Assembly (NCBI GenBank): GCA_963727905.1
Contig: CAVSIC010000021.1
Coordinates: forward strand, 34,998 to 98,997
Length of the DNA stretch: 64,000 bases
Direction: 5' to 3'
DNA from: an uncultured Microthrixaceae bacterium
Lineage (GTDB): Bacteria > Actinomycetota > Acidimicrobiia > Acidimicrobiales > VFJN01
A model generated the notes under the pieces. The model searched no databases. It saw only the letters and a program-made list of their open reading frames with translations, and had not been told where the DNA came from. A program made the translations under genes and the position numbers. Shown piece by piece: positions 30,321 to 61,812 of the stretch; position 1 is the first letter of the stretch, and each line of letters starts with the position of its first letter.

Positions 30321-31422
30321 TTAGGGCTGGCGGCGGGTGAGGCGGTGGAGGTGGGGGGCGGCGCGGCCGGCGACCAGCGGGAGATCGAGGTAGGTGCGGA
30401 GGCCGGGGTCGGCGGCCACGACGTAGGGCACTGCGTTCACGCAGTGCTGCGCGGTGGCGACGATCCCCGGGTTGCGCAGCGAGGCCGGCCTCCACGCTCA
30501 CGGGGTGCAGCTTGTGCGAAGGTCGTCAGGCAGCTCGGGTCACCGGTGACCTCCACCTCGAAGCGCTCGCCGCCGGGGCCGAAGGTCCAGCCGGGATCGA
30601 GGTCGTCGTCGCCCATGAACCAGTTCACCGCCGCGGTGATCACCGGCGTCCCGTCGACCGTGCCCTCCCACCGGAAGCGCTGCGCGGCGACGAGACCCGG
30701 CTCGATCGGCCCGATGGGTGAGTCGATCGGCGCCGTCGCCACGGCCATCTCGTGGGTGGTGCGCAGCTCCGGGTCGAGGTCGAACCCGAGCTCGTCGGCG
30801 ACCATCCACACCGACTGCCGGAAGCCGGCGCCGAGGGCGTCGGCCATGACGCTCGTGCGCGCCTCCTCGGGCGTCTTGCCGAACAGCATCCAGTCGCGGA
30901 TCACGTCGGGGGCGCCGTAGGTGCGGATGTCGGAGAACTCCTCGGCCCGCACGTGGGTGATCGAACCCGAGAGCGCCGACACCATCAGCGGGAAGCGCTC
31001 GGTGATCCCGCCCGGGTGGATGCCCGTGCCGTGCAGGGTGACGCCGGCCTCGCGGCACACCGCGTCGAAGTGCTCGCGCTGGTCGGTCGGCGGGTAGAAC
31101 CAGCCGAGCGGCGTGACCACGTTCTTGCCCGACCGCAGCAGCTGCTCGCACCACGGCCGGGTCCGCCATGAACGGGCTGTAGACGACGCAGTCGGCCTCG
31201 GTGTCGAGCAGTCGCTCGACGTCGGTCGTTGCGGCGACGCCGACCGGCTCGCGGCCGACGAGCGTGCCGAGGTCGGCGCCGTCCTTCGCATCGCTGTGCA
31301 CCCAGCACGCCGACCAGCTCGAGGTCGGCGCGGTCGAGCACCGCCTCGATGGCGGCGCGGCCGACCCCTCCGGTGGCCCACTGGATGACGCGGAGCGGAC
31401 GGTTGGGCGTGGCCGTGGTCAT
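30321..31422 (-). pseudogene. Frameshifted paralogue of the NAD(P)-binding DapB-like/amine-dehydrogenase-family gene at 32968..34035 (at least 4 frame breaks)
   Basis: The protein can only be read by hopping frames. The segments are MTTATPNRPLRVIQWATGGVGRAAIEAVLDRADLELVG, then HSDAKDGADLGTLVGREPVGVAATTDVERLLDTEADCVVYSPFMADPAVV, then EQLLRSGKNVVTPLGWFYPP...WTFGPGGERFEVEVTGDP, then LHPVSVEAGLAAQPG, then IVATAQHCVNAVPYVVAADPGLRTYLDLPLVAG...*. The whole path is colinear with the intact paralogue. Confidence 0.8.
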
Positions 31423-31453
31423 CCCGCAATATCGCGCGGGATCGCCGCCGAGG

Positions 31454-32869
31454 TCAGCGGAGGCGGTGGAACGGGCCGGTGATCGCGAAGCAGAGGCCCT
31501 CGTCCTGGATGTTGGCGAACAGGGTCTTGCCGTCCGGGGCGAAGCACACACCGGTGAACTCGGAGCCGCTGAGCCGGTTGCGGGCGAAGGGGCGGACCTG
31601 GCCGCGCTCGTCCACGGCGAGCAGGTGCTGGGCACCCTGGCCGTCCTCGGCCAGGAAGAACCCGCCGTACGGCGACACGGTGATGTTGTCCGGGCCGTCG
31701 GGCTGGTCCGAGGCGGTGTCGGGATTCACCGGCAGGTGCAGCTCGAGGGTGAGCGTGCGACGGTCGGGGTCGTAGCCCCAGACCTGGCCGTCGTGCTCGG
31801 CCAGCGAGCCGTCGCCGAGCCGGGCGAACGAGCACACGAGGTGGGCCTTGGCGTCGTCGCGGAAGTCGAACCACCGGCGGTCGGGGGTGGCATCCCCCCA
31901 CCACGCCCCCTCGAACTTCCGGCTGCGGGTGACCTCGGTGTCGGCCAGCTGCTTGCGGGTCGACACCGTCGCGGCCTGCGGGTCGGGGACCGGCACCCAG
32001 TCGACGCGGAGTGTCGTGCCGGGGTCGGAGAACACCGACAGGTCGGGCACGTGGGCGCCGCGGAGGCTGCAGCGCATCGCGCTGAGCCGGCCGCCGTTGC
32101 GCAGCGCGCCGTAGGTGCGGCTGCGGTCCCGGGGCTCGAAGCGGTACACGAGCCCGTTGGGGCCCGAGGCGTCCTCCGTGAGGTAGAGGTCGCCGCGGGC
32201 CGGGTCGACGCACACGGCCTCGTGGGCGAACCGGCCGAGCGCCGTCAGCGGCGTGGGCACGAGGTTGTGGAACCGCTGGGCCGGGTCGACCTCGAACACG
32301 AAGCCGTGGTCCTTGTCGGCGGTGGGGCCGGCCTTCTGCTCGGTCTCCTCGCAGGTCAGCCACGTGCCCCACGGGGTGACGCCGCCGGCGCAGTTGGACC
32401 AGGTGCCGGCCAGGCTCACCCGCTCGTCGACCCGCTGGTTGCGGCGGTCGAGCGTGAGGGTGGTGGTGCCGCCCTTGCCCTTGGGGTCGTAGGTGAGCTG
32501 GAGGTCGGCCAGCGTCGGGTTGGCGTCGGCGGCGCCGATCTCGTGGTTCTGGACGAGGCGGACCCCGCCGGCGGGGCCCCAGAACGCGGCGGTGCCGTCG
32601 TGGCGGCCGGGCGTGGCGCCGCCCTCGGTGAGGGGGTCGCCGGCGCGCGACACCACGGCGTAGGTGAACCGGTCGGGCAGGTCGATGACCCCGGCGGGAT
32701 CGGGCACGGGATCGCCGACGGAGCTGGCGGCGGACGCGGGGTTGGCGGCGAGGAGCGTGCTCACGTTGCCGACGGCGAAGGCGCCGGCTCCGATCGCGGT
32801 GTGCTTGAGCATCTGGCGGCGGGTGAGCGACACGGGGGGACCTCCGGGGTGCGTTGGGAGCGACCTCAT
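31454..32869 (-). CDS. Tat-secreted PhoX-like/DUF839 beta-propeller phosphatase
   Basis: 471 aa. Tat motif 'LTRRQMLKHTAIGAGAFAV'. 'NCAGGVTPWGTWLTCEE', 'FAHEAVCVDP...LYLTEDA' and 'PDNITVSPYGGFFLAEDG...EFTGVCFAPDGKTLFANIQ' are DUF839/PhoX hallmarks. Confidence 0.8.
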   Translation of the reverse strand: MRSLPTHPGGPPVSLTRRQMLKHTAIGAGAFAVGNVSTLLAANPASAASSVGDPVPDPAGVIDLPDRFTYAVVSRAGDPLTEGGATPGRHDGTAAFWGPAGGVRLVQNHEIGAADANPTLADLQLTYDPKGKGGTTTLTLDRRNQRVDERVSLAGTWSNCAGGVTPWGTWLTCEETEQKAGPTADKDHGFVFEVDPAQRFHNLVPTPLTALGRFAHEAVCVDPARGDLYLTEDASGPNGLVYRFEPRDRSRTYGALRNGGRLSAMRCSLRGAHVPDLSVFSDPGTTLRVDWVPVPDPQAATVSTRKQLADTEVTRSRKFEGAWWGDATPDRRWFDFRDDAKAHLVCSFARLGDGSLAEHDGQVWGYDPDRRTLTLELHLPVNPDTASDQPDGPDNITVSPYGGFFLAEDGQGAQHLLAVDERGQVRPFARNRLSGSEFTGVCFAPDGKTLFANIQDEGLCFAITGPFHRLR

Positions 32870-32967
32870 GCAAGACGACGCAGATGACCCCTCGGTGGCC
32901 TCCGGTGAGCGCGCGGGTGAGGCGGCGGCGAACTCACCGTCCCGACGACGCCCTAGGGTCCGCCCCC

Positions 32968-37743: not shown

Positions 37744-38469
37744 TCAGGTCAGGACGCCGAGGTACGCGGCCTGCACGTCCGGGTGCTCGCGGACGTGCTT
37801 GGGCGTCCCGGTGGCGATGACCTCGCCGAAGTTGAGGACGAAGATCTCCGAGCACAGCTGCATCACGAGGTCCATGTCGTGCTCCACCAGGAGGATGGCC
37901 ACCCCGGAGCCGGCGACCGTCTCCAGCACCTCGGCGAGGCGCAGGGTCTCGACCTCGTCGAGGCCGCTGGCTGGCTCGTCGAGGAGCAGCACCTTCGGCT
38001 CCGTGGCGAGCGCTCGGCCGAGCTCCACGAGGCGGGCCTGCCCGGTGGGCAGTGCGTCGGCGCGGCGGCCGGCCACCGGCCCGAGGCCGAGGAGCTCCAC
38101 CACCCGGTCGGCCACCGCCACCGCCCCCCGCGTGCCGTGCCGCCGGTTCAGGCCGGCGATCTCCGCGGCGGTGCGGACGTTGTCGAACGCGGTCATCGAC
38201 CCGAACAGCTCGAGCCGCTGGAAGGTGCGGTTCATGCCGAGGCTGGCCCGACGGTGCGGGGGCGCACTGGAGACGTCGACGCCGTCGAGGTGGACCCGGC
38301 CGCGGCAGCGCTGGACGCCCGCGATGGCGTTGAAGGTGGTGGTCTTGCCGGCTCCGTTCGGACCGATCAGGCCGACGATCGTGCCGGCCTCGACCGTCAG
38401 CGAGACGTCACGAACCGCTGCGTGCGCCCCGAAGCGGACGTCCAGGTGCTGCGCGTCGAGCACGGCCAT
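37744..38469 (-). CDS. Branched-chain-amino-acid-type ABC transporter ATP-binding protein (LivG-like), intact
   Basis: 241 aa from ATG 38469 (AGGAGG upstream). Walker A 'GPNGAGKTT', 'LPTGQARLVELGRAL' (signature variant) and Walker B 'LLLDEPASGL' are present. Confidence 0.9.
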   Translation of the reverse strand: MAVLDAQHLDVRFGAHAAVRDVSLTVEAGTIVGLIGPNGAGKTTTFNAIAGVQRCRGRVHLDGVDVSSAPPHRRASLGMNRTFQRLELFGSMTAFDNVRTAAEIAGLNRRHGTRGAVAVADRVVELLGLGPVAGRRADALPTGQARLVELGRALATEPKVLLLDEPASGLDEVETLRLAEVLETVAGSGVAILLVEHDMDLVMQLCSEIFVLNFGEVIATGTPKHVREHPDVQAAYLGVLT

Positions 38470-38883
38470 TGCGAGGCTCCTCCTGTGAGGGATCGGATGG
38501 CGTCCACGAGCTCGAGGTGGTCTCGGCGACGCGCCGCCTCGTGGGCGCGGGCGTCGCGGATCGCCACCGTGAGCCAGTGGGTGAAGAGCGTGAGCGCCCC
38601 GATGATCGCCAGCGCCAGGCCGAGGAGGCCACCGGAGATCAGGTACGGGACCTGCTCCTCGATCAGCACCGAGTTCGCGGCGCCCGACCCACCCGAGCAC
38701 GATCACCAGGAGCCCGGTCGCCATCAGAGAGGCCGCCACGCTCAGGAGGAAGCGCGGGTGGCCGACGATCGACCGGCGACCCTCGTCTCGCAGGTGGTCG
38801 TCGGCGCCGTCGGCGAGTCGGGCGTCGCGCTCCTCCGGAGGTGGCCCCCCGTCGAGCACCTCGAACCGCTCGGGTGAGGTCAT
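38397..38883 (-). pseudogene. Two-TM membrane protein of unknown function embedded in the ABC operon; one +1 frame break near 38685
   Basis: ATG 38883 overlaps the upstream stop (ATGA). It reads MTSPERFEVLDGGPPPEERDARLADGADDHLRDEGRRSIVGHPRFLLSVAASLMATGLLVIVLGWVG. After one extra base it continues as AANSVLIEEQVPYLISGGLLGLALAIIGALTLFTHWLTVAIRDARAHEAARRRDHLELVDAIRSL. The 3' end is uncertain and overlaps the LivG-like start. Confidence 0.5.
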
Positions 38884-40269
38884 GGTTCCTCCCAGTCACA
38901 GGGATCGGTGTGGTCCGCCGTCAGGACGGCGAAGGCGAGCGCCCCGAGCCGGTCGCCGATGAACGGCACCGCCAGCAGGGCGAGCAGCACGAGCGAGCCG
39001 ATGCCGGCGCCCTCGGGGATCGGGACGTCGGTGCCGACCGGGCGCTGGCCGCCGGGGCCGACGGGAGCGGGGGCGACGGTGCCCGGCAGGTCGAAGGTCG
39101 GGGAGATCGACGGCACGTCGAACGAGGTGTCGGGCAGGAACGGTGTCTCGGGCAGGCCGGCCTCGAAGCCCGGACGGGCGGCCAGCGACACGGTGCCGCG
39201 GGCGACCTCGACGGACACGAGGTGCTTCGCCTTCGCGATGGTGAGGACGTCCTCGACGCCGGGAGCACCCGGGATGCGGGTTGTCGATCGGCGGGAAGGC
39301 GTCGATCAGCAGGGCGAGGCCGGGGAGGGTGCGCTGCGACAGCTCGAGGTCGACCTTCAGGCCAGCCGTGGCGAGCTGGCCGGCGGCGCCGCCCTCGAGC
39401 TTCACAGGGCTCGACAGCGTGACGGTGATGCCGACCTGGCGGAGGATCTCGCCGACCGGTCCGGCCAGCCCGCCGAGGAGCGGCCCGAGGATCGGATCGG
39501 CGGCGTCGCCCTGGTGGATGCCCTTGCTGTCGATGGTGACGGGGACGCCCAGGATCGACGCGCCGGCGACGGTGGTGCCACCACTCAGCTTGGTGTCACC
39601 GCCCTCGGAGGTCGCCGTGAGGTCGGTGGTGATCGAGTCGATCACCAGGAGCCCGAGCACGTTGAAGCCGCTGGTCTGGGTGCGGGCGTGCACGGTGACC
39701 GTGGAGCCGTCGGTCTCGGTGGTGGCCGTCGCGGTGACGGTGCCGAACGTGGCCACGGCGGGAGCGTCGACCGCGGGCAGCGTGGCGTGGGCCCGCGATC
39801 CGCGCGTCGGTGACGTCGACCCGCGCCGACGAGGCCCGGGACCGGGCTCACCTCCGCGCTCGGGTTGCCGGAGCCCGACGTCGCCGAGATGCGGTACGGG
39901 TAGGGCGGGAGCGTGCCGGCGGGGTACTGCTGCCGACGCGAGCGACAGCACGACGTCGGGGTTGGCGAGCAGGTCGCCGGGGTCGGCCACGGAGGCCCGG
40001 GCGAAGGTCGACGGGCCGCTGGCGATCGTGGCGAGGGCGTCGGGGATCCCGAGGTCGACGGGGGGCGGCGTCGGGAGGATGTTGCCGAGGTTGTAGAAGG
40101 CGTGGACGCCGGACGCGGCGGCCGACCCCTGGTAGCCGCCGAGCGTGCCGCCGTCCTGCGCGGCGCTGGGGGCACCCTCGAAGAAGCTCGCGGCCACGAC
40201 GAGCCCGAGCACCACCCGGATCGCTCGCAGCGCCGGGTGCCTCCGACCCCTCGTGCCTCTCGCGGTCAT
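38880..40269 (-). pseudogene. Secreted, C-terminally membrane-anchored protein of unknown function embedded in the ABC operon; about 4 +1 frame breaks
   Basis: ATG 40269 overlaps the permease stop (ATGA). The signal-like N-terminus is MTARGTRGRRHPALRAIRVVLGLVVAASFFEGAPSAAQ. The body is readable through four frames (...QYPAGTLPPYPYRISATSGSGNPSAEVSPVPG / ARVDVTDARIAGP / HATLPAVDAPAVATFGTVTATATTETDGSTVTVHARTQTSGFNVLGLLVIDSITTDLTATSEGG... / ...SVEVARGTVSLAARPGFEAGLPETPFLPD...). It ends with the TM segment GIGSLVLLALLAVPFIGDRLGALAFAVL. The length of 1390 nt equals 462 codons plus 4 nt. Confidence 0.55.
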
Positions 40270-41279
40270 GCCTCGACCCCCAGCTCCCCGGGTGCGGCGG
40301 CTCGAGCCTCGGACCGACGGCGGGCCCGTCCCACGAGGGCCTCCCGCCAGCTGCCGCCCTGCCCGAACCCGGACGTCAGCATGCCGGCGAGCCCGTCCGG
40401 CTGGCGGCCGAGGCCGATGGCGGCGGCGGCGATCACGACGAACACCAGCCCGGCGAGGTCGGGGTAGGTGGACTGGGCGTAGACGAGGGCGGCGAACAGG
40501 CCGCCGGCGATCGCCGCACCGGTGACGGTGGTGATGCCGCCGACGAAGGCGTAGAGGAGGATCACGAGGCTGTTCACCGGGTCGAACTGCGTGCCGTCGG
40601 CCGTGCCGTTCATCCCACCGAAGAGCGCCCCCGCGCACCCGGCGATGAACGCCGAGAACGCGAAGATCGCGACCTTGGCCCACCGGACCCGCAGGCCGAG
40701 GGTGGCGGCGGCGAGCTCGCTGTCCCGGATCGCGGTGAGCTGGCGACCGAACCAGCTCCGCCGCACCACGCCCACCACGATCGCCAGCACGACGAACACG
40801 ATCGCGCACCACACGGCGAACGCGGTGTCCGACCGGGTGGAGATGCCGAGCACGTCGGGGCGGCCCACGAAGCGGCCGCTCCGGCCGAAGACGTGCGGGT
40901 CGTCGAGGATCACCGCGCGCCCGATCAGCGCGATGCCGAACGTGCTGAGCGCGAGGTGGAGGCCCCGCAGCCGCACCGACGGCAGCGCGACGAGGACGCC
41001 GAGCAGCCCGGACACCAGCCCGCCGAGCGAGCATGCCGAGCACGTTGTTGCCGCCGAACGCCTCGCCGCCACGAACGCGCCGATCCCCGAGGAACAGGTA
41101 CTGGGTGAGCGAGATCTGGCCCGAGAGCCCGTGAGCGCGACCAGCGACAGCGCGATGGTGGCGATCACGAGGCCGCGCACCAGGTGCGCCGAGATGTCGG
41201 ATCCTCCGAGGTTGCCCGCGAGGGCGACCAGGCCGACGAGCACGGCACCGGCCACAGCCGAGCGGCGCAGGTCGGCACC
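40266..41279 (-). pseudogene. LivM-like ABC permease, multiple frame breaks (boundary with the LivH-like part is approximate)
   Basis: Recognisable only by frame hopping: ...LVIATIALSLVALT / GLSGQISLTQYLFLG / IGAFVAA / EAFGGNNVLGMLA / GGLVSGLLGVLVALPSVRLRGLHLALSTFGIALIG.... These give the LivM 'GQISL...G.GAY' and 'RLRG.Y.A..T' motifs. The C-terminal 230 aa are in one frame. Confidence 0.7.
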
Positions 41280-49228: not shown

Positions 49229-49266
49229 CGCCCGCCCCGACGACCCTCGACCCGATCGGAGACCCC

Positions 49267-50465: not shown

Positions 50466-50468
50466 CCC

Positions 50469-52017
50469 ATGTCCGCGAGCCCGATGGCCGACAGCATCCC
50501 GGGACTGCTCGACGCCACCGCCTCACAGCACGGCGACCGGGCCGCCGTCGTCGACGGCGACGTCCGACGGACCTGGTCCGAGGTGCAGGCGCGCTCGGAT
50601 GCGGTGGCCGCGGCGCTGATCGAGCTCGGCGTCGAGGTGGGCGACCGCGTCGCGATCTGGGCGCCCAACGGCCACCGGTGGATCGAGGCGGTGCACGGCC
50701 TGCTCCGGGCGGGTGCCGTCCTCGTGCCGATCAACACGCGCTTCAAGGGCCAGGAGGCGGCCGACCTGCTCGGCCGGAGCGGCGCCAAGGTGCTCATCGC
50801 CACCCGGACCTTCCTCGACACCGACCACGTCGCGATGCTCGAGGCCACGGGGGCCGACCTTCCCGACCTCCGCACGACGGTCGTGGCCGAGGGCGAGCGG
50901 TGGGAGGCGTTCCTCGCCACCGCCACGCCCGCCTCACTCGACGAGGCCCGTCGCCGCCGCGCGGCGCTCGGGCCGGACGACACCTCCGACCTCCTCTTCA
51001 CGTCGGGCACCACCGGCGTGCCGAAGGGCGTGGTGATGACCCACGGCCGGACCCTGCGGGTGGCATCGGACTGGGTGGCGATGACCGGGCTCAGCGCCGA
51101 CGACCGCTACCTGATGGTCAACCCGTACTTCCACATGTTCGGGTTGAAGGCCGGGATCCTCGCCTCGACCGTGGCGGGGGCGACGATGTACCCCGAGCCC
51201 GTGTTCGACGCCGGCCGGGCGCTGGCCCGGGTGGCGTCGGACGGCATCACGGTGTTCCCCGGCGCGCCGACGATCTACCAGTCGCTGCTCGACCACCCCG
51301 ACCGGGCCGCCCACGACCTGTCGAGCCTGCGGGTGGCGGTGACCGGCGCCGCCGACATCCCGGTGCGCCTGATCGAGCGCATCCGCGAGGAGCTGCCCTT
51401 CTCCCTCGTGGTCACCGGGTACGGCCTGAGCGAGGCCGGCACCGCCTCCGCCACCACCCCCGACGACGACGCCGAGATCGTGGCCACCACCGTGGGCCGG
51501 GCCCGCCCCGGCTTCGAGATCCGGATCGTCGACGGCGACCGCGACCTCCCCACGGGCGAGGCCGGCGAGGTCGTCCTCCGCGGGCCGTCGGTGATGGCCG
51601 GCTACCTCGACGACCCCGGCGCCACCGCCGCCTCGCTGTCTCCGGACGGCTGGCTGCGCACCGGCGACCTCGGCGTGCTCGACGAGCGCGGCAACCTGCG
51701 CATCGTCGGCCGCAGCAAGGACATGTTCATCGTGGGCGGCTTCAACGCCTACCCCGCGGAGATCGAGAACGCCCTCCTCCGCCACCCCGACGTGCAGCAG
51801 GCCGCGGTGATCGGCATCCCCGACGAGCGCCTCGGCGAGGTCGGCATGGCCTTCGTGGTCACGCGCTCGGGCGACCCGGGCGCCGGACCCGGGATCCTGG
51901 CGTGGTGCAAGGACCAGATGGCCAACTACAAGGTCCCGCGCGCCATCGAGCTCATCGACCGAGCTGCCGCTGAATGCCACCGGCAAGGTCGTGAAGGACG
52001 AGCTCCGTGCGCGTCGC
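50469..52017 (+). pseudogene. AMP-dependent acyl-CoA synthetase 1; +1 frame break at about 51959, after which the frame runs without a stop into the next ligase
   Basis: 'LFTSGTTGVPKGV', 'TGYGLSEAG', 'TGDLGVLDERGNLRIVGRSKDMFIVGGFNAYPAEIE' and 'YKVPRAIELID' are in one frame. One extra base follows, then 'ELPLNATGKVVKDELRAR' (the canonical ligase C-terminus) reads in the frame of 51991..53559. Confidence 0.8.
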
Positions 52018-53559
52018 GACGTCTTCCTGCACCGCGCACTCGAACGGGCCGCCGCCCGGCTCGGAGCCCGCGACGCGGTGCTCGTCGGCGACGACCGCTT
52101 CTCGTTCGCCGACCTCGACGGGCGCAGCAACGCGGTCGCCCGTCACCTGGCCGGGTGCGGGGTGGCCAGGGGCGATCGGGTCGCCGTGATGATGACCAAC
52201 CGCGTCGAGTTCGTCCTCGTGGTGAACGCGGTCAGCAAGCTCGGGGCCGCGTCGGTGCTGCTCAGCCCGGCATGGAAGTCGCTCGAGGTCACCCACGCGA
52301 TCGGCCTCACGGCCCCCACCCACGCGGTGGCCGACGAGCCCGGTTCCGCGCTCCTCGCCGAGGTGCTCGGCGCGGAGCACGTGACGGACCTCAGCGACGC
52401 CGCCGCCCTCGCGGCTGCGCTCGACCACCCGACGGACCCGCTCGACCTCGCTGCGCTCGACCTCGCTGCGCTCGACCCCGTCGCGCTGGAGCCGGCCGAC
52501 GAGGCGATCCTCGTGTTCAGCTCCGGCACCACCGGGCTCCCGAAGGCGGTCCGCCACACGCACGCGTCGATGGGTGCCGCCACCCGGCACTGGGTCGCCG
52601 CCCTCGGCCTGGGGCCGGAGGACCGGTTCCAGGTGGCCACTCCCCCGTCGCACATCCTCGGCCTGCTCAACCTGCTGGCCGCGGCGGAGGCGGGCGCCAC
52701 GGTGCGCCTGCACGGCCGCTTCGACCTCGACGAGGTCCTCCGCCGGATCGGGTCCGATCGGATCACCCTCGAGATGGCGGTCGCCCCCATCGCCCTCGCG
52801 ATGGCCAACCACCCCACGCTGGAGTCCTTCGACCTCTCGTCGCTCCGCTACATCATGTGGGGCGCCACACCGGTCACCGAGAGCGTGGCCGCCACCGTCA
52901 CCGAGCGCACCGGCGTCCGCTTCCTGCCGGCCTACGGCGCCAGCGAGTTCCCCGTGCTCGCCTGCAACCCGGTGGCCGACCCCACCCGCTGGCGGCTCGA
53001 CTCCGCCGGGCTCCCCCCGACCGAGGTGGAGCTGCGCGTCGTCGACCTCGACACCCGCGAGGTGCTCGAGCCGGGAGGCATCGGCGAGATCCAGGCCCGC
53101 GGGCCGTCGGTCATGTCCGGGTACCTCCCCGACGAGGCCAACGCCGACGCGTTCGAGGACGGGTGGTACCGCACGGGCGACGTGGGGTGGCTCGAGGCCG
53201 AGGGCTGGGTGCACCTCACCGACCGGTCGAAGGAGATGATCAAGGTCAACGGCTTCCAGGTGGCCCCGGCCGAGATCGAGGCCGTGCTGCACGGTCACCC
53301 CGCCGTGCTCGACTGCGCGGTGTTCGGCATGGCCGACGAGCGGGCCGGCGAGGTGCCGGTCGCCGCGGTGCAGCTCGACCCCGACCGGCCGGTGGCCGAC
53401 GGCGAGCTCGAGCAGCTCGTGGCCGACTCGCTCGCCACCTACAAGCACCTCCGCCACCTCGTGGTGGTCGACGCCATCCCGCGGCTGCCGTCCGGGAAGG
53501 TGCTGCGGCGCACGCTCCGCGACGAGTGGACGCCCAAGCTCACCGCGGCGGACCGCTGA
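51991..53559 (+). CDS. AMP-dependent acyl-CoA synthetase 2 (start codon unresolved)
   Basis: 'LVFSSGTTGLPKAV', 'YGASEF', 'TGDVGWLEAEGWVHLTDRSKEMIKVNGFQVAPAEIE' and 'LPSGKVLRRTLR' are present. The N-terminal 'FLHRALERAAARLGARDAVLVGDDRFSFADLDGRSNAVARHL' is a normal ligase N-terminus, but no stop separates it from ligase 1. Confidence 0.8.
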   Translation: MKDELRARRDVFLHRALERAAARLGARDAVLVGDDRFSFADLDGRSNAVARHLAGCGVARGDRVAVMMTNRVEFVLVVNAVSKLGAASVLLSPAWKSLEVTHAIGLTAPTHAVADEPGSALLAEVLGAEHVTDLSDAAALAAALDHPTDPLDLAALDLAALDPVALEPADEAILVFSSGTTGLPKAVRHTHASMGAATRHWVAALGLGPEDRFQVATPPSHILGLLNLLAAAEAGATVRLHGRFDLDEVLRRIGSDRITLEMAVAPIALAMANHPTLESFDLSSLRYIMWGATPVTESVAATVTERTGVRFLPAYGASEFPVLACNPVADPTRWRLDSAGLPPTEVELRVVDLDTREVLEPGGIGEIQARGPSVMSGYLPDEANADAFEDGWYRTGDVGWLEAEGWVHLTDRSKEMIKVNGFQVAPAEIEAVLHGHPAVLDCAVFGMADERAGEVPVAAVQLDPDRPVADGELEQLVADSLATYKHLRHLVVVDAIPRLPSGKVLRRTLRDEWTPKLTAADR

Positions 53560-54620
53560 TGGACGTCCGCCTCTCGCCCGAGCAGAACGCCCTGCGCGAC
53601 TCCGCGGCCCAGGTGGTCGACCGACTCGGCGTCGGCGCCGTCGGCGAGCTCGACGACGTCGAGCGGGCTGCCAAGCTCGACGCCGCCGTCGACGCGGCCG
53701 GGTGGCGCGAGCTGCGGACCGACGACGACACGGGCGGGCCGCTGGCCTCCGCGGTCGAGGCCGGCCTGCTCGCCGAGGAGCTGGCTCGCGGCCTCGCCGA
53801 CGCCGCGTTCGTCGGACCGACGCTGGCCGCCGACCTCCGCCGACGAGCTGGCGCGCCGGCGGCCACCGTCCCCGAGACGGTCCTGCTCACCGGGGACCTC
53901 GGTGCGCTCGCGGTCGTCGAGGACCCCTCCCCTCCGGCGAACGCCGTCGCCGTCGACGCCCGAGGGGCCTCCACCGCCCTCGTGCTCATCCCCACGGGAG
54001 CCGGTCACGCGCTCGGCTGGGTCCGACTCCCCGCGGCGGAGACGCGCACCGACCTCACCCGAGCGATGGCACCGTGCGGCGCGGGCGCCGAGGTCGTCCT
54101 CGTCCCCGACCAGCAGCGGACGCTCTGGGAGGACGACCTGGCCGCGTGGACGGCGCTCGGGCTGGCGCTCACCTCCGCCGACCTCGTCGGCACGATGCGC
54201 GGCGCAGTGGACCTCGGGTGCGGGTACGCCAAGGACCGCCACCAGTACGGCAGCCCGATCGGCTCGTTCCAGGCGGTGCAGCACCTGCTCGCCGACGCGT
54301 TCGTGGCGATGGAGGGGTCTCGCAGCGTCGCGCTCCACGCGGCGTGGGCGGTCGATTCGCTCCCGCCGCGGGAGGCGCTGGCCGCCGCCGCGCTGGCCAA
54401 GGCGTACTGCGCCCGCGCCGCCCGCACGGCGTGCGAGACGGCCATCCAGGTGCACGGCGGCATCGGCAACACCTGGGAGTGCCTCGCCCACGTGCACCTC
54501 CGCCGGGCGCTGCTGTCGACCGACGTGCTCGGCGGCGCCGGCGCCAACCTCGACCGGGTGCTCGCCCACCGCGGGCTCAAGGGGTCCCAGGAGATCGGAG
54601 GTGCCCGTGGACTTCGGTGA
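53559..54620 (+). CDS. Acyl-CoA dehydrogenase family protein (first member of an adjacent ACAD pair)
   Basis: 353 aa. Its ATG overlaps the ligase stop (TGATG). 'YAKDRHQYGSPIGSFQAVQHLLAD...IQVHGGIGNTWECLAHVHLRRA' is an ACAD C-terminal domain. It lacks the 'SEPDAGSD' middle-domain motif. Confidence 0.85.
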   Translation: MDVRLSPEQNALRDSAAQVVDRLGVGAVGELDDVERAAKLDAAVDAAGWRELRTDDDTGGPLASAVEAGLLAEELARGLADAAFVGPTLAADLRRRAGAPAATVPETVLLTGDLGALAVVEDPSPPANAVAVDARGASTALVLIPTGAGHALGWVRLPAAETRTDLTRAMAPCGAGAEVVLVPDQQRTLWEDDLAAWTALGLALTSADLVGTMRGAVDLGCGYAKDRHQYGSPIGSFQAVQHLLADAFVAMEGSRSVALHAAWAVDSLPPREALAAAALAKAYCARAARTACETAIQVHGGIGNTWECLAHVHLRRALLSTDVLGGAGANLDRVLAHRGLKGSQEIGGARGLR

Positions 54621-55736
54621 CGCCCCTGAGGAGGCCGCCTTCCGCCACCGCCTGCGCGAGCTGGCTCGCGGAGAACAACCCGGGGCTCCCGACGTCGTCG
54701 ACCGACGACGACTACTGGGCCGGTGCCGCCGCCTGGCACCAGGCGCTCTACGACGCCGGCTTCTTCGCGCATGTCGTGGCCGAAGGAGATCGGCGGCCAG
54801 GAGCTGTCGACCGTCTACGAGGTGATCGTCGACGAGGAGCTGGCCGCCGCCGGCGCCCCGCCCCGCCCGAGCCTCGGCTACCTCGTGAAGGGCATCCTCG
54901 AGCACGGCAGCGAGGACGTCCAGCGGCGCTTCCTGCCCGGGATCGTCAACGGGCGCGAGCGCTGGTGCCAGGGGTTCAGCGAGCCCGACGCCGGCTCCGA
55001 CCTCGCCTCGCTCCGCACCCGGGCCGTGCGCGACGGCGACGACTACGTCATCACCGGGCACAAGGTCTGGACGAGCTACTCCGACGTCGCCGACTGGTGC
55101 CTCGTGCTCGCCCGCACCGACCCCGACGTGGCCAAGCACAAGGGCCTCTCCGCCTTCATCGTGGCGATGGACCAGCCGGGCATCGAGCAGCGTCCGCTCC
55201 GCATGATCAACGGCATCACCACCGAGTTCGGCGAGGTGATCTTCGACGACGCCCGCGTCCCCGCCGCCAACATGATCGGCGACCCCGGCGAGGGGTGGCG
55301 CCTGGCGATGACCGTCGTCAGCCACGAGCGCGAGCCGGGCGAGCTCGGCTACGTCGCCCGCTACACGAAGTCCGTGAACCAGCTCGCCGCCGCGGTGCGC
55401 GAGGAGCCCGAGCGGTTCTCCGACGACCAGGTCACGGACCTCGGCTGGGCCATCGTCGAGGCGGAGATGCTGCGGCTCCACGTCTGCCGCCGGCTGTCCG
55501 ATCGCCTCGACGGCATCGAGCACGGCCCCGATGGCTCGGTGGACAAGCTGCTGATGACCTCCGTCGAGCAGGCCGTCGGCCACGCGGCGCTGGCGATCGG
55601 CGGGACCGGCCACGCCGGCGCGGACACGTGGCTCAAGATCTACCTGTACAGCCGGGCCCAGAGCGTCATGGGCGGCACCTCGCAGATCCAGCGCAACCTC
55701 GTGGCCACCCGCATCCTCGGGCTCCCCACCTCCTGA
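54601..55736 (+). pseudogene. Acyl-CoA dehydrogenase (second member of the pair), two +1 frame breaks at about 54660 and 54770
   Basis: The segments VPVDFGDAPEEAAFRHRLRE, WLAENNPGLPTSSTDDDYWAGAAAWHQALYDAGFFA and MSWPKEIGGQELS...CQGFSEPDAGSDLASLRTRAVRDGDDYVITGHKVWTSY...MGGTSQIQRNLVATRILGLPTS* lie in three successive frames. Confidence 0.8.
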
Positions 55737-55768
55737 TCCACCCCCTCCCGCTGAGCAAGGATCCCCGC

Positions 55769-56566
55769 ATGACCAAGTACGACCTGCCGAACGAGATCCA
55801 GGTCGAGGCCGACGGCCCGATCCGGGTCATCCGGCTCAACCGGCCCGACGAGCTCAACGCCACCAACCACGAGCTCCACAAGGGCCTGGCCGAGCTGTTC
55901 CCGCAGCTCGACGCCGACCTCGACGCCCGGGTGGCGGTGCTCACCGGCAACGGCCGGGCCTTCTCCGCCGGCGGCGACTTCGGCTACATCGACGAGCTCA
56001 CCAAGGACGTCGACCTCCGCCGCGAGACGCTCGTGCACGGGCGCCAGATCGTCACCGGGATGGTCGCCTGCCGCCTGCCGATCGTGGCCGCCGTGAACGG
56101 CCCCGCCGTCGGGCTCGGCTGCAGCCTGGTGGCCCTGTCCGACATCGTGTTCATGGCCGAGAGCGCCCACCTCGCCGACCCCCACGTGCTCATCGGCCTC
56201 GTCGCCGCCGACGGCGGGCCCGTCACCTGGCCGCTGCTCACCAGCCTGCAGCTGGCCAAGGAGTACGCCCTCACCGGCGATCGGATCTCGGCCGAGCGGG
56301 CCGCGGAGATCGGCCTGGCCAACCACGTGTGCCCCGACGACGAGGTGTTCGACCAGGCCCTGGCCTGCGCCAAGAAGATCGCCAAGCTGCCCCAGAAGGC
56401 GTCCGAGGACACCAAGCGCATCCTCAACCTGCACCTCGAGCGGGCGGTGCTGGCCACCCTCGACTTCGCGTTCGCCGCCGAGGACCGCTCGTTCACCTCG
56501 CCCGAGCTGCGGGCCAACCTCGATCGCATGATGTCTGGTGACAAGCCAGCGAAGAAGGACGCCTAG
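55769..56566 (+). CDS. Enoyl-CoA hydratase/isomerase (crotonase)
   Basis: 265 aa. 'VLTGNGRAFSAGGDF' and 'AAVNGPAVGLGCSL' are crotonase oxyanion-hole motifs. Confidence 0.9.
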   Translation: MTKYDLPNEIQVEADGPIRVIRLNRPDELNATNHELHKGLAELFPQLDADLDARVAVLTGNGRAFSAGGDFGYIDELTKDVDLRRETLVHGRQIVTGMVACRLPIVAAVNGPAVGLGCSLVALSDIVFMAESAHLADPHVLIGLVAADGGPVTWPLLTSLQLAKEYALTGDRISAERAAEIGLANHVCPDDEVFDQALACAKKIAKLPQKASEDTKRILNLHLERAVLATLDFAFAAEDRSFTSPELRANLDRMMSGDKPAKKDA

Positions 56567-56569
56567 CCC

Positions 56570-57669
56570 GTGGACTTCGAGCTGACCGACGAGCAGGTCG
56601 CGCTGCAGGAGATCGCCCGCGAGGTGGTCGAGCGCGAGTGCCCGCCCACGCTCGTGCGCGCCGTCGTCGAGGACGACGCCGACACCGACGCGCTCTGGAA
56701 GACGCTCGTCGGCCTCGAGTGGCCCGGCCTCACCGTGCCGGTGGAGCACGGCGGCAGCGGCGCGACCACGGTCGAGCTGGCGGTCGTGCTCGAGCAGCTC
56801 GGCTGGGCGGCCGACCCCACCCCGTTCCTCGCCACCACGACCCAGCACCTCCCGCTCGTGGCCGAGGCGCTCGAGGGCGCGGTGCGCGACGAGCGCCTGG
56901 CGGCCATCGCCGGTGGCAGCCCGGGCGCGGCCGTGCTCGACGCCGGCACCGTCTCGGCCCGCGCCGACGGCGACGACTGGGTGCTGACGGGGACCGCCCC
57001 GCACGTGCTCGACGCCGACCGGGCCGACGAGCTCGCGGTGGTCGTCACGACCGAGCACGGGCCCGGCGTCGTCCTCGTCCCGGGCGGCGTCGGCGCGGCG
57101 ACCAGGGAGCCGTCGGTCGACGCCAGCTTCCACCTGTGCACGGTGACCCTCGACGGCGTCCGCGTGCCGTCGGCCCGCGTGGCGACGGGACCCGCGGTGG
57201 CGACCGCGATCGAGCGGGCCCGCCACGAGGCGCTCACCGGGCTGGCCGCCGCGATGGTCGGCGCCTCGCAGCGGGTCTTCGACCTCGTGCTCGACCACAT
57301 CCGCAGCCGCCACCAGTTCGGCGTGCCCATCGGCTCGTTCCAGGCCGTGAAGCACATGGCCGTCGACGTGCTACATGGCGATCGAGCGGGCCCGGGCCCT
57401 CGTGCCAGTTCGCGGCGCTGACCATCGCCGAGGACGACGAGCGGCGGACGCTGGCCGCCTCGCTGGCCAAGGCGGCCGCCGGCGACGCCCAGCGCATCGC
57501 CAGCCAGCACGGCATCCAGCTGTTCGGCGGCCTCGGCTACACGTGGGAGAACGACCTGCAGCTCTACCTGCGGCGGGCCAAGGTCGGCGAGCTGCTCCTC
57601 GGCTCCGCCCACCAGCACCGCGTCGCCATCAGCCGGCTCGTCCTCGCGGAGCAGGAGGCACCCCGATGA
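56570..57669 (+). pseudogene. Acyl-CoA dehydrogenase family protein, two +1 frame breaks within about 45 nt (57370-57415)
   Basis: MDFELTDEQVALQEIAREVV...RHQFGVPIGSFQAVKHMAVDV is followed by MAIERARALV and then FAALTIAEDDERRTLAASLAKAAAGDAQRIASQHGIQLFGGLGYTWENDLQLYLRRAKVGELLLG...*, in three successive frames. Confidence 0.8.
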
Positions 57670-58864
57670 AGCTGGCCTTCGACGACGCAGACCGAGGCCT
57701 TCCGCCGCGAGTTCGGCGCGTGGCTCGACGCCAACGCGCCGACGCCCGAGGACGACCACCGAGCGCCCGCGCTCGAGCGCGCACATCCCCGAGTGGGCCC
57801 GCCGGTGGCAGCGCACGATGTTCGACGCCGGGTGGCTCGTCCCCGGCAACCCGCCCGAGTTCGGCGGCCGCAACGCCACCCTGCTCGAGCAGTTCGTCCA
57901 CCACGAGGAGCTGGCCCGCCGGAAGATCTACGCCAGCTTCAACCCGCAGGGGCTCTCGATCATCGTCCCGTCGATCCTCGGCTTCGGCACCGACGAGCAG
58001 AAGCAGCGGTGGGCCCGGCCGATCCTGCGGGCCGAGATGACCGCCGCCCTCGGGATGAGCGAGCCCGACGCCGGCTCCGACCTGGCCGGGCTGCGCACCC
58101 GGGCGGTGCTCGACGGCGACCAGTTCGTCGTCAACGGGCAGAAGGTGTGGACCTCCGGCGCGCACGACGCCGACGTGATCCTCACCTTCGTCCGCACCGA
58201 TCCCGACGCGCCGAAGCACAAGGGCATCAGCGTGCTCCTCATCCCGACCGACACCCCCGGCGTGACCCGGCGCCCGTTCGGCTCGATCCAGGGCAAGGCG
58301 GACCAGGACTTCAACGAGGTCTTCTTCGACGACGCCGTCGTCCCCGCCGAGAACCTCCTCGGCGACGCTCCACGAGGGGTGGCGGGTGGCCACCGGCTCG
58401 CTCGGCCACGAGCGGGCGATGCTCTGGCTGGAGTACTCCGGCCACCTGCAGGACCTGACCGAGCGCGGCGGCAACGTGCTCCTCGACGAGGGCCTGCTCG
58501 ACGACGAGCTACGCGCTCGACTGGTTCGGTCGCCTCGTGACCGACGCCCACGCGCTGAGGCTCCTCGGCTACCGCACCCTGGCCAAGACCGGGAAGGGGC
58601 TCGTCCCCACGGAGCAGTCGATCCTCAAGCTCCTCGGCAGCGAGGCCGTGCAGGCCGCCACGCTCCACGTGCTCGAGGCGCTCGGCCCCGACGGGCTCGA
58701 TCCCAACGTGCCGCAGCGCGCCCGCCGAGCCCCTCAACCTCGACGTGTGGACCGAGGGCTGGTTCGACCAGTACCTGCGCACGTTCTCGATGACCATCGC
58801 CGGCGGCACGTCGCAGATCCAGCGCAACATCGTGGCCGAGCACGTGCTCGGCCTCCCCCGCTAG
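57666..58864 (+). pseudogene. Acyl-CoA dehydrogenase, five successive +1 frame breaks
   Basis: ATG 57666 overlaps the upstream stop (ATGA). The segments are MKLAFDDA, EAFRREFGAWLDANAPTPEDD.., HIPEWARRWQRTMFDAGW...MSEPDAGSDLAGLRTRAVLDGDQFVVNGQKVWTSGA...ENLLG, LHEGWRVATGSLGHERAMLWLEY..., YALDWFGRLVTDAHALRLLGYRTLAK... and EPLNLDVWTEGWFDQYLRTFSMTIAGGTSQIQRNIVAEHVLGLPR*. The frame order is 0,1,2,0,1,2. Confidence 0.8.
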
Positions 58865-58870
58865 TCCGGC

Positions 58871-59375
58871 TCAGGGCTCGTCCACCCGGTCGCCCTCGGC
58901 GACCCGGATCTTGCCGATGAGCCGCACGAGGAGGGCCAGCTCCTCCTCCGAGAGCTCGACCGTGTCGAACAGGTCGGCGTTCAGGCCGGTCGACGGCGCG
59001 GTCGAACAGCTTCCGGCCCTTCGCCGTGATCTCCACGAGCGTGGCCCGGGCGTCGGTCGGGTGCGACGCCGGCGGCAGAGGCCCGCGCGCCTCCAGGCGG
59101 TCGACGGCGCTGGTGACGGTGGCCGGCGTGATCCAGAGCCCGTGGCCGACGGCGCCCAGCGTCAGCGGACCGGCCCACCGGAGCATCCCGAGCACCTGGT
59201 AGCGGGCGAAGGTCAGCCCGAGCGGCCGCAGCACGGCCGTGGCGCGGCTCAGGAAGATCTGCTCGGCCCGCATCACGGACACGACCGCGGCCATGCCGTC
59301 GGCGCTGTCGGTCCAACCCTCCTGGAGCCAGCGCTGGCGCGAGGCCTCGACGGGGTCGTAGTCGAGGTGGGGCAC
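58871..59375 (-). pseudogene. MarR-family transcriptional regulator, one +1 frame break near 58990
   Basis: GTG 59375. 'LGLTFARYQVLGMLRWAGPLTLGAVGHGLWITPATVTSAVDRLEARG...HPTDARATLVEITAKGRKLFDRAV' is a winged-helix MarR core. The C-terminus (LNADLFDTVELSEEELALLVRLIGKIRVAEGDRVDEP*) is readable only after skipping one base. Confidence 0.75.
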
Positions 59376-59384
59376 CGGCCGAAC

Positions 59385-61812
59385 CTAGCCCCGCGATGCC
59401 GGCGCCCGGCCCGTGACGCCGCGCTCCGCGAGGTCGGCGAGCTCCTCGTCGGACAGGCCGAGGGCCCCGAGCACCTCCGTCGTGTGCTCGCCCAGCAGGG
59501 GGGCGTGGCGGCGATGGATGCGCTCCGGCCCGCGGGAGAACCGCATCGGCAGCGTGCTGTGCCGGGCGGTGCCGGCGATCGGGTGGTCGACCAGCTCGAA
59601 GAACCCGCGGTGCTGCAGCTGGGGCAGCTCGCCCTGCTGGTGCGGCAGGACCACCTTGCCGACAGGGACCCCCGCCTCCCAGAGGGCGTCGACGACCTCG
59701 TCGCCGGTCCGCGCGTCGCACCAGGCGGACAGCTCGGCGTCGATCTCGTCGTGGCGGGCCCGGCGGCCGTCAACGGTGTCCAGCTCGGGGTCCATCGCCC
59801 AGTCGGGGCCGCCGAGCGCCTCGCGGAGGGCAGCCCACTGGTCGTCGGTGGCGACAGCGATGGCCACCCAGTCGTCTCGCCCGCCGGCGTCGTCGACGTC
59901 GGCCGTGCGGTAGAGGCCCTGGGGCGCGGCGGCCGGGCCGCGGTTGCCGTGCCTCGCGAGGACCGCGCCGTAGGCCGCGTGCTCCACGATCTGCTCGGCG
60001 GCCACGTTGAGCGCGGCGTCGACCATCGGGGCCTCCACGACCACGCCCTCGCCGGTCCGCCGCCGGTGCTCGAGCGCGAGGAGCAGCCCGGTCAGCGCGT
60101 GGAGGCCGGCGTTGGAGTCGCCCACGCAGTACGGCGACACCGGGTTGGTGTCCGGGAACCCGGTCCGCCAGGTGATGCCGGCGGCGTCTTCGATCACGAA
60201 CGCGAACGCGGGTCGTCGCGCCACGGCCCGTCGAGGCCGAAGCCGGGCATCCGCACCACCACCAGGTCGGGCCGGAGCCCGCGCACCGTGTCGAGGTCGA
60301 GTCCGATCTGCTCGAGCACCCGGGGCGTGTTGTTCTCGACGAGGACGTCGCAGGTCGCGACGAGTCGGCGCGACCAGCTCCTTGCCCTCGTCGGTGGCGA
60401 GGTCGAGGGTGACGCTGCGCTTGCCGGCGTTGAGCCCGGAGAAGATCCCCGACTGCTCCCACCAGTCGGGCTCCGAGAAGCGGAGCCCCGCCAGCATCCG
60501 GGTGCCGTCGGGCCGGGTGGTCGACTCGAGGTGGAGCACGTCGGCCCCGAGCATCGCCAGCACGTGCGTGCACAGCGGCCCCGCCCAGAACGCCGTGAGG
60601 TCCAGCACCCGCAACCCCGCGAAGGGCAAGGACCCCACCCCAATGGGTTCTCGCGACGCCGGCGGGACGCCGGCGTCGTCCCCGCGTCGCAGGTTCGACG
60701 GGGTGTGCTCGCCGAGGTGGGGGGCGGGGGTGGGGGTCGCCAGCAGCGGGGGGTCGAAGCGGTAGGGGCGGGCGGGCTCGGCGAAGCCGTCGCGGGGGTT
60801 GGCGACGATCGAGCCGCGGGCCTGGAAGTGGTCGGTGGCGGGGATGGAGGCGCCGTTGCCGATCGGGGCGTGGGGGATGCGGAACGCCCCGGCCAGGTCG
60901 AGGACCTCGGCCGTGGTGTGCTCGGCCATCCAGGCCGCGATCTCCGGCCGCAGGTGCGACCGGTCGGCGAAGAGCTTCCGGTCGTCGGTCCACTCGTCGT
61001 GGCCGACCATCGTGCAGAAGTCGAGCCACTGCTGGCCGGTGCCGACGCCGAGGCCGACGAGGCCGTCGCTCGTCGACTCCACGCCGGGGGTGACGTTGCT
61101 GCGACCGGTGCGGAAGGGCCGACCCACCATGTCGGCGTAGGTCACCGGGTAGTAGGTGAGGCACATCGCCATCACCTCGAGCATCGACAGGTCGACCAGC
61201 TCGCCAGGGCCGTCGGCCAGCGCCCGGGTCCGGGACACGAGCGTGCCGATGGCCGCGTAGGTGCCGGAGAGCCACTCGCCGATCTGCCCGCCGACGGACA
61301 CCGGGGCCCGGTCGGGCGCAGCCGCGGCCGAGCCCGAGGATCCCGCCGGACCAGGCCTGCAGCGTGAGGTCGGTGGCCGGCCGGTCGCTCCACGGCCCGT
61401 CGAGGCCGAACGGCGTGATGGCGGTGACCGTGAGGTGCGGGGCCGACTCCCGGAGCGCGGCCGGCGAGAGCGACGGGAGCTCGGCCAGCCGCGAGCCGCG
61501 CGACCACACGACCGCGTCCGCCCCGCGCAGGAGCTCGTGCACCCCCTCGATGGCGGCGGCGTCGCCCGGATCGACGACGACGCTGCGCTTCGACGAGGCC
61601 AGGAACGCGAACAGCGCGCCGTCCTCGCCGTGGGGGATGGCCGCGCCCGAGGCCGACCAGCGGCGCAGCGGGTCGCCCTCCGGCGCCTCGACCTTGACGA
61701 CGTCCGCGCCGCCGTCGGCGAGGAGCTTCGTGCAGTAGGCGCCGGCGATCCCGCTGGAGAGGTCGACGACGACGTAGCCGTGCAGGGGCGGGGTGGGGGC
61801 AGCCGCGCTCAC
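59385..61812 (-). pseudogene. Double-domain family III (CaiB/BaiF) CoA-transferase, three frame breaks (about 61335, 60375, 60205)
   Basis: GTG 61812 overlaps the upstream stop (GTGA). Domain 1 reads 'LHGYVVVDLSSGIAGAYCTKLLADGGADVVKVEAPEGDP'. Domain 2 reads 'LAGLRVLDLTAFWAGPLCTHVLAMLGADVLHLES'. The segment 'RLVATCDVLVENNTPRVLEQIGLDLDTVRGLRPDLVVVRMPGFGLDGPWRDDP' sits in a different frame from its flanks. Confidence 0.8.

Follow-up and report, generated by a model that had tools for sequence, protein, structure and literature searches.

Frame breaks in a branched-chain amino-acid transporter and beta-oxidation region of an Acidimicrobiia contig are best explained as consensus errors

True gene decay in bacteria, as in Mycobacterium leprae and recently host-restricted pathogens, is characterized by nonsense mutations, deletion bias, larger deletions, slippage contexts and relaxed selection, and bacterial mutation-accumulation studies place substitutions at approximately 5 to 10 times the frequency of indels. 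Consensus sequences derived from PacBio continuous long reads at low coverage carry insertion-dominated random errors. Nanopore-only assemblies below ~40-fold coverage keep indels that fragment gene calls, and the classic Nanopore consensus errors have been described as homopolymer indels (PMC9262707). The Microflora Danica (MFD) MAGs are Nanopore-only and were assembled with Flye followed by one round of Medaka (PMC12313526). The window analysed here, a stretch of 64,000 nucleotides from an Acidimicrobiia contig, resembles each of these described systems in part. Like the residual errors of Nanopore-only Flye and Medaka assemblies, treated for R10.4 data (PMC9262707) and for the long-read MAGs of MFD (PMC12313526), its frame breaks are single-base indels that fragment otherwise normal genes, depend on support, are patchy and are not seen in short-read assemblies of relatives. 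However, the published Nanopore errors are mainly homopolymeric, whereas the inserted bases in the window and in one MFD locus (L068) are mostly isolated, so that the match is to the MFD contigs measured here and not to the textbook Nanopore error mode. The likeness to PacBio low-coverage errors, which are insertion-biased, largely context-independent and single-base as in the window, is offset by the fact that the relatives sharing the signature are Nanopore assemblies and nothing links the window to PacBio. With pseudogenes of decaying genomes the window shares several frameshifts per gene and inactivated metabolic and transport clusters beside intact genes, but it differs in having no nonsense mutations, deletion bias, slippage contexts or relaxed selection.

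The reading frames of the window were scanned with a GC3-periodicity HMM combined with a stop-codon test at the junctions. The scan detected ~30 frame changes without a stop codon in 30322-61828, and alignment to orthologous DNA located 37 events that disrupt the frame, spread over 13 genes from position 30480 to 61318. These comprised 30 one-base insertions, six one-base deletions and one 17-nt deletion, insertions thus making up 83% of the 36 single-base events. The breaks were restricted to 30.3-61.4 kb of the window, with zero in 1-30321, an asymmetry between the halves with P about 5e-11 under the expectation of a uniform spread. These results agree with the preliminary description of this DNA, which had counted about 30 breaks, mostly +1, all to the right of 30.3 kb. 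The close pairs of breaks that it mentioned were recovered as strong clustering, since 42% of the distances between neighbouring events were no more than 150 nt, compared with 15% expected. Clusters spanned 0.1-1.5 kb, which is finer than long-read depth alone predicts; the cause of this scale is conjectural. Individual Pfam domain matches continued over the break junctions. The breaks are genuine features of the deposited sequence.

The clean half of the window (1-30321) contains ~30 genes, each encoded by one ORF with full-length domains and free of frame breaks. Complete Pfam domains were found throughout, so the earlier statement that all genes of this half are intact holds. The GC3 frame HMM called 0 shifts in the native sequence of 1-30321 and recovered all 150 of 150 insertions planted in it; a frameshift-aware check of this half revealed no breaks comparable to those on the right. 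Fifteen same-strand frame changes were present, and the HMM with the stop test located a stop codon at the junction in 14 of the 15. The scan marked the remaining one, at 1819, as a possible shift, but this was rejected, because the upstream ORF ends at 1770 and the frame change is an ordinary gene boundary. A search of metagenome contigs with a left-half anchor returned only relatives of 64-81% amino-acid identity, none of them syntenic; hence, the left half was judged by HMM sensitivity and Pfam completeness, not by base-level alignment. The kilobase at 29313-30321 that appeared non-coding was considered as a wrecked gene and rejected, as two small ORFs of lower GC content lie there. Scans for RNA genes with tRNA and Rfam models found nothing. 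A Ku gene is located at 11278-12072.

The first broken gene is DapB-like, or 2,4-diaminopentanoate-dehydrogenase-like (30324-31438, minus strand), with +1 events at 30480, 30514, 31149 and 31306, the junctions being bridged by the Pfam domains DapB_N and DAP_DH_C. Its corrected protein showed 93% identity over 99% of the length to an intact 365-aa protein (P0241). Alignment with the orthologous locus L086 gave 92% nucleotide identity with exactly four one-base gaps and no stops, and the mismatches fell at codon positions 1, 2 and 3 in the numbers 12, 5 and 64. On either side of this 1.1-kb segment lies a strain-specific insertion, 29318-30330 on the left and the PhoX gene (31439-32945) on the right; both are missing from L086 and contain zero errors.

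The next affected genes belong to a minus-strand group that includes the branched-chain amino-acid (Liv) transporter. A secreted, C-terminally anchored protein (38889-40260), whose homologues are named 'choice-of-anchor P family' by NCBI, carries +1 events at 39275, 39804, 39827 and 39928; these insertions are missing in both L085 and L083, and the corrected protein was 74-77% identical over 100% of the length to intact proteins of 457-464 aa. Seven events interrupt the permease genes livM and livH (40265-42190), namely +1 at 41026, 41088 and 41566 and -1 at ~41066, 41128, 41272 and 41789, as placed by alignment to L085 and L083. The corrected frame of these permeases contains no stops, and the domain BPD_transp_2 was matched over the junctions at positions 3-268 and 4-242 of 269. 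The LivF-like ABC ATPase (42190-42915) has +1 events at ~42675 and ~42805, located only to within ~15 nt; the HMM placed its junctions at 42672 and 42811, both +1, ABC_tran bridges the one at 42672, and homologues are colinear through frames -2, -3 and -1.

Further to the right, the plus-strand Amidohydro_2 gene (49267-50465; intact orthologue of 398 aa in L081) matched positions 19-286 of 289 of its domain over the junction. The event at 50285 that had been read as -1 resolved into a pair of +1 insertions, one at 50278 and one 11 nt further on at 50289, with a net change of +2 that reads as -1. Acyl-CoA ligase 1 (50469-52010, plus strand; intact orthologue 475 aa) bears one extra G at 51957, close to its 3' end, which is found in neither L081 nor L082. 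Three acyl-CoA dehydrogenase (ACAD) genes follow on the plus strand. The one at 54600-55733 (orthologue 376 aa) has +1 events at 54660 and 54769, neither present in L081 or L082; that at 56570-57669 (orthologue 364 aa) has +1 events at 57372 and 57405, placed against the same two loci, with Acyl-CoA_dh_1 bridging the junction; and that at 57666-58864 (orthologue 397 aa) has five, at 57689, ~57750, 58364, 58507 and 58713, its corrected protein being 88-89% identical over 100% of the length to intact 397-aa proteins. On the minus strand, a MarR-family regulator (58874-59384), with its MarR domain matched, contains +1 at ~58990, -1 at 59069 and +1 at ~59089 according to length comparison with L081 and L082, and a family III CoA-transferase (59388-61812) contains -1 at 60214 and +1 at 60372 and 61318; intact orthologues of the latter are 783-807 aa long and its corrected frame has no stops. 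The earlier gene-by-gene counts stood for the DapB-like gene (4), the secreted protein (4), the Liv permeases (7, given earlier as at least 7), LivF (2), ligase 1 (1), the ACADs (2, 2 and 5) and the CoA-transferase (3), whereas orthologue DNA alignment raised those of the amidohydrolase from 1 to 2, of MarR from 1 to 3 and of a two-TM protein from 1 to 2. Orthologue alignments also bore out the intactness of the genes interleaved with these.

With the extra bases taken out, the genes encode full-length proteins that share 89-95% identity with intact orthologues (88-89% for the ACAD with five events and 74-77% for the secreted protein), and the native stop codon was kept in most corrected genes. 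No premature stop was found in the ~5,600 codons of the corrected genes read in the orthologue codon frame, as had been stated earlier; by computation, ~2.3% of random substitutions in the broken genes would yield a stop. The substitutions of the window lineage in these genes amounted to 1.8% at the first, 1.6% at the second and 5.5% at the third codon position, and the ratio of positions 1+2 to position 3 was 0.305 on the window lineage versus 0.304 on the lineage of L081, in which the same genes are mostly intact. The broken genes thus show no relaxed selection specific to the window lineage, and the alternative of relaxed selection raised in the preliminary description is not supported. Positions 1+2 evolve ~2 times faster in the broken than in the intact gene set on the window lineage, and since this difference is equal on the L081 lineage, it is a trait of these genes and not of the window. 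Substitution errors around the indels were also sought, and the window-specific rate within 10 nt (2.5%) showed no excess over the background (2.7%). Breaks aside, nothing distinguishes the affected genes from functional orthologues.

Among the inserted bases that could be assigned unambiguously, 20 of 25 were unlike both neighbours, compared with 48% expected for random insertion, and only 5 of 25 extended a run, compared with 52% by chance; the insertions were therefore not concentrated in homopolymers. This avoidance of identical neighbours is the opposite of replication-slippage mutations. No slippery motif shared among the sites was found. A CpG-creating bias (13 of 17 G/C insertions) was dropped, because it largely follows from base composition and the avoidance of identical neighbours.

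The same HMM was applied to related Acidimicrobiia. In 31 MFD long-read loci it called 92 shifts in 670 kb (13.7 per 100 kb), while 48 loci from short-read MAGs or isolates gave 7 shifts in 768 kb (0.9 per 100 kb), so that such shifts are ~15 times rarer in the short-read or isolate loci than in the Nanopore-only loci. The MFD shifts were 74 of +1 and 18 of -1 (80% +1, which matches the 83% insertions in the window), and they were unevenly distributed, with 22, 20 and 15 in three loci and 0-2 in most. In L068, the lineage-specific one-base indels comprised 6 insertions, 4 of which were non-homopolymeric, and 4 deletions. The closest relative, L081, which has 91% nucleotide identity and a contig name in the style of Flye, has lineage-specific breaks of its own (6 insertions and 1 deletion) at sites different from those of the window. 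In contrast, the genes are uninterrupted in L082, L083, L085 and L086, which are MEGAHIT, JGI or short-scaffold assemblies. No sequence closer to the window than 91-92% nucleotide identity was found. A search of genome contigs with the DUF35-thiolase gave nothing closer than 79% amino-acid identity and was used for cross-assembly comparison only; L087 was rejected as a comparison locus, as it is not syntenic.

Taken together, the breaks are an assembly or consensus artefact rather than pseudogenisation or recoding, with a probability of about 90%. The preliminary description had leaned towards consensus or assembly error, and this leaning is strengthened by the absence of nonsense codons, the retained third-position bias, the non-homopolymeric nature of the insertions and the lack of extra substitutions beside them, and the occurrence of the same signature in Nanopore-only MAG contigs. 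The window most likely belongs to a metagenome contig assembled from long reads, probably from Nanopore reads alone. In its poorly supported stretches the polisher would have failed to remove single surplus bases and, in fewer cases, would have lost a base. Poor support could reflect low local depth, or reads of co-occurring related strains piling onto shared segments, and each error would put out of frame a gene that is in other respects normal and under selection. The second of these causes defines a variant of the consensus-error reading, in which reads of a relative of ~90% identity were recruited to shared segments and confused the polisher, whereas strain-specific segments and the left half stayed clean; it differs from the general explanation only in what makes the errors patchy. 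The variant is possible but doubtful. The sub-kilobase clustering of errors is consistent with it, as are the four errors of the DapB-like segment, shared at 92% identity, beside flanks that are absent from L086 and have none. Substitutions of the L081 lineage reached 6.9% within 10 nt of the window indels versus 3.8%, suggesting that the indels occupy more strain-variable stretches, although this enrichment is confounded by rate differences from gene to gene. Most insertions are bordered by bases that agree with the references, which is unlike alleles written side by side, and on this ground two consecutively written strain alleles were rejected as a general mechanism.

Recent pseudogenisation, in which selection was lifted from the beta-oxidation cluster, from the Liv-type transporter and from a few neighbours so that they gained frameshifts, is very unlikely. 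It could account for breaks that lie in functionally related operons while some neighbours are intact, and the position of the DapB-like gene between two strain-specific insertions points to local genome flux. The faster evolution of positions 1+2 in the broken set would also fit on the window lineage, but it is equally present on the L081 lineage. Had 37 indels accumulated neutrally together with approximately 5 to 10 times as many substitutions, ~4 to 8 new stops would be implied at 2.3% per substitution, and 0 were found. The 30:6 excess of insertions is contrary to the deletion bias normally seen, homopolymers are avoided as insertion sites, and up to five independent frameshifts occur in one 1.2-kb gene that has fewer lineage-specific substitutions than its sister; moreover, such breaks are ~15 times fewer in short-read assemblies of relatives than in Nanopore-only assemblies of the clade. 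It is also very unlikely that the extra bases are truly in the DNA through a recent localized burst of untemplated single-nucleotide additions in a subpopulation or in relic DNA. Such a burst, for example by error-prone end-joining through Ku and LigD, might leave +1 changes without substitutions, too recent for other decay, but among relatives the signature goes with the technology used for sequencing, and no motif is common to the sites. Programmed recoding, by which ribosomal frameshifting or transcriptional slippage would restore the frame, is hardly conceivable: the mostly single direction of the shifts (+1) is all that favours it, whereas the 37 sites lack a common slippery motif or homopolymer, the orthologous ORFs are uninterrupted at every site in four independent assemblies, and several genes would require 4 or 5 successive events.

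As the breaks are almost certainly consensus errors, the biology of the region is ordinary, and the genes for the transporter and for beta-oxidation are to be regarded as intact and not as pseudogenes. An analysis that accepted the contig as deposited would misjudge 13 genes, with consequences for metabolic reconstruction, pseudogene counts, coding density and completeness. The biological significance is small and the technical value modest: Nanopore-only contigs of high-GC Acidimicrobiia can carry patchy, insertion-biased, non-homopolymeric single-base errors, which simple homopolymer-aware filters would miss and which a GC3 frame plot or frameshift-aware alignment detects easily in GC-rich genomes.

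One event stands apart from the others. The gene of the two-TM protein (38400-38886, minus strand; intact orthologues 163 aa) contains, besides a +1 event at 38686, the 17-nt deletion at 38486, both placed by three-way alignment with L085 and L083. The earlier statement that large deletions are lacking does not hold at this site. The deletion lies immediately upstream of the start ATG of livG (38469-38467, minus strand); consensus errors do not typically take this form, and the deletion may represent real variation.

Because the window has a G+C content of 72% and long ORFs in all six frames, plain ORF lists were uninformative, and a frame model (HMM) was therefore built with seven states, GC content per codon position and a penalty for stop codons. 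Same-strand frame changes were then sorted by the presence or absence of an upstream-frame stop at the junction. In the left half (1-30321) there were 15 such changes, every one an ordinary gene boundary: 14 had the junction stop, and the remaining one, at 1819, raised an automatic flag as a possible shift but follows an ORF that already terminates at 1770. About 30 changes without a stop were found at 30322-61828, and under the junction criterion common to the cross-assembly scan the left half showed 0 shifts and the right half 24. Since all 150 single-base insertions planted in left-half genes were recovered (150/150), the breakless left half is a true negative. Left-half genes carried complete Pfam domains within single ORFs (Thiolase_C 2-122/123, AMP-binding 4-381/384, Ku 1-189/190, WS_DGAT_cat 1-261/263), as did interleaved right-half genes (PhoX, Peripla_BP_6 1-342/343, glyoxalase, pirin, two SDRs, DUF427, thioesterase and P450). 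The preliminary description, which placed all breaks right of 30.3 kb among otherwise intact genes, was thus borne out.

When frames were joined along the HMM path before the Pfam search, single matches crossed the junctions in the DapB-like gene, the LivF-like ATPase, LivH, LivM, Amidohydro_2 and two acyl-CoA dehydrogenases (ACADs). A search of a large protein collection with three frame-corrected proteins gave intact matches in each case: 397-aa proteins at 88-89% identity and 100% coverage for the ACAD at 57666-58864, 457-464-aa proteins at 74-77% and 100% for the secreted protein at 38889-40260, and a 365-aa protein at 93% and 99% for the DapB-like protein.

Reference DNA for base-level placement came from orthologous loci reached through protein matches, namely L081 (ENA ERZ25039476 contig_5226, a Flye-style name), covering 47532-64000 at 91% nucleotide identity, L082 and L083 from one shared MEGAHIT assembly, the JGI contig L085, and L086, a short scaffold with 92% identity to the DapB-like gene. 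Indels were polarised by three-way alignment, and the two LivF shifts were located by tblastn, as had been proposed. In total, 13 genes hold 37 events: 36 single-base changes (30 insertions, 6 deletions) and one deletion of 17 nt. The earlier per-gene counts were nearly exact, with three corrections from the orthologue alignments: the supposed -1 in the amidohydrolase gene resolves into a pair of +1 insertions separated by 11 nt, the single MarR break is three events (+1, -1, +1), and the two-TM gene has, besides the reported break, the deletion of 17 nt, which sits shortly before the LivG start.

Among 25 unambiguous inserted bases, 20 were unlike both neighbours, against an expectation of 48% for random insertion, and just one lengthened a run of three or more. 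Their composition (G 11, C 6, A 5, T 3) was in line with that of the genome. Window-specific substitutions were not enriched near indels (2.5% vs 2.7%). The events were clustered, with 21 of 34 one-kilobase bins empty against 11.3 expected and a variance-to-mean ratio of 2.5; 42% of neighbour distances were at most 150 nt against 15% expected, in agreement with the close pairs noted before. To our knowledge, no mutational process yields indels that are clustered, biased towards insertion, not of the slippage type and free of accompanying substitutions; the pattern looks like a consensus-calling artefact.

Pseudogenisation, which the preliminary description had kept open as relaxed selection, was not supported. 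Read in the orthologue codon frame, most corrected genes kept the native stop position and none had an internal stop, as previously stated; about 2.3% of random substitutions in the broken genes would create one. Lineage-specific substitutions in the window and L081 were polarised with L082 as outgroup. Window-specific rates at codon positions 1, 2 and 3 were 1.8%, 1.6% and 5.5% in broken genes and 0.95%, 0.66% and 6.0% in intact genes, but the twofold difference between the sets was also seen on the L081 lineage (2.6/2.5/8.5% vs 1.2/1.3/6.9%), where most of the window-broken genes are intact. The (pos1+2)/pos3 ratio of the broken genes was 0.305 in the window and 0.304 in L081, indicating no window-specific relaxation of selection by codon-position rates. 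The five-frameshift ACAD had accumulated fewer substitutions on the window lineage than its orthologue had on that of L081, and the DapB-like gene differed from L086 at 12, 5 and 64 sites at codon positions 1, 2 and 3. Recoding at the break sites was not supported either. A Ku (non-homologous end-joining) gene lies at 11278-12072 in the clean left half; it bears only on a reading of the +1 additions as real, which is unlikely.

The same HMM and junction test were applied to all fetched loci. In the Microflora Danica (MFD) class, 31 loci recognised by record titles, shifts numbered 92 over 670 kb, or 13.7 per 100 kb, with +1:-1 = 74:18, whereas the 48 loci from short-read MAGs or isolates had 7 over 768 kb, or 0.9 per 100 kb. 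MFD MAGs are Nanopore-only, assembled by Flye --meta --nano-hq with one Medaka polishing round, and some lower-coverage ones show reduced coding density (PMC12313526); about 40-fold coverage is required before Nanopore-only assemblies lose gene-fragmenting indels (PMC9262707). The spread was very uneven, most MFD loci having 0-2 shifts and three (L004, L038 and L068) having 22, 20 and 15 in some order, or 57 of the 92. Error load therefore varies greatly among MFD MAGs or regions, presumably because of coverage. L081 and L087 (ENA ERZ25039594 contig_60621), both Flye-named, had 10 and 15 shifts in 21 kb; L082 had 0. Polarised with L082, L081 carried 6 insertions and 1 deletion of its own at sites unlike those of the window; L068, polarised with the loci L026 and L018, carried 6 lineage-specific insertions (4 non-homopolymeric) and 4 deletions. 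Gene calls on L081 and L087 were visibly fragmented (for example, a ligase into 348 + 382 aa, BPD_transp_2 into 181 + 177 aa), and public-database proteins predicted from these contigs will include artefactual truncations. Taken with the character of the events and the absent signs of decay, the MFD versus short-read contrast supports the earlier leaning, and we consider it highly probable (about 0.9) that the breaks are errors of a long-read metagenome assembly, most likely a Nanopore-only one.

The error patches might correspond to segments common to co-occurring relatives, which could account for the sharp boundary at 30.3 kb and the sub-kilobase patchiness. The four-error DapB-like gene lies between two clean segments missing from L086, and L081-lineage variation is somewhat enriched around window indels, neither point being decisive. 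Both are insertions relative to L086, the closest scaffold. The first (29318-30330) is a lower-GC stretch of 1 kb with small ORFs at 29490-29930 and 29943-30296, the former bearing a twin-arginine-like signal (RRRF); the second (31439-32945) holds the entire PhoX-like phosphatase gene. In L086, the end of the WS/DGAT gene and the second DapB-like paralogue adjoin the DapB-like gene directly.

In the Liv-type ABC transporter operon (37744-42915, minus strand; counterparts L083 1-3543 and L085 1-4384), the permease and LivG ATPase genes are separated by an insert that is unusual and conserved. It encodes a secreted, C-terminally anchored protein of ~460 aa without a Pfam domain, whose more than 200 homologues, labelled 'choice-of-anchor P family' by NCBI, come mainly from Acidimicrobiia metagenome contigs, and a 163-aa two-TM protein whose gene overlaps the LivG start by ~60 nt at its 3′ end. 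At 38486, the two-TM gene lacks 17 nt that L085 and L083 both have, in the part encoding the C-terminal tail and 17 nt before the LivG ATG; unlike the single-base events, this deletion could be a genuine variant. A 435-aa ATG ORF (43951-45258, plus) is misleading as a gene, since its first ~170 codons run antisense to the 5′ portion of the substrate-binding protein gene (42915-44357, minus), the one with Peripla_BP_6 1-342/343; the real plus-strand gene is an SDR of ~265 aa starting near 44461. Two bigger length differences from L081 are both internally repetitive: an in-frame 30-nt insertion in ligase 2 (52439-52468), with two copies of CGCTCGACCTCGCTG giving the repeated peptide LDLAALDLAAL, and a 38-nt segment (48157-48194) with CTTCTTGCGCAG repeated, upstream of the P450 start.
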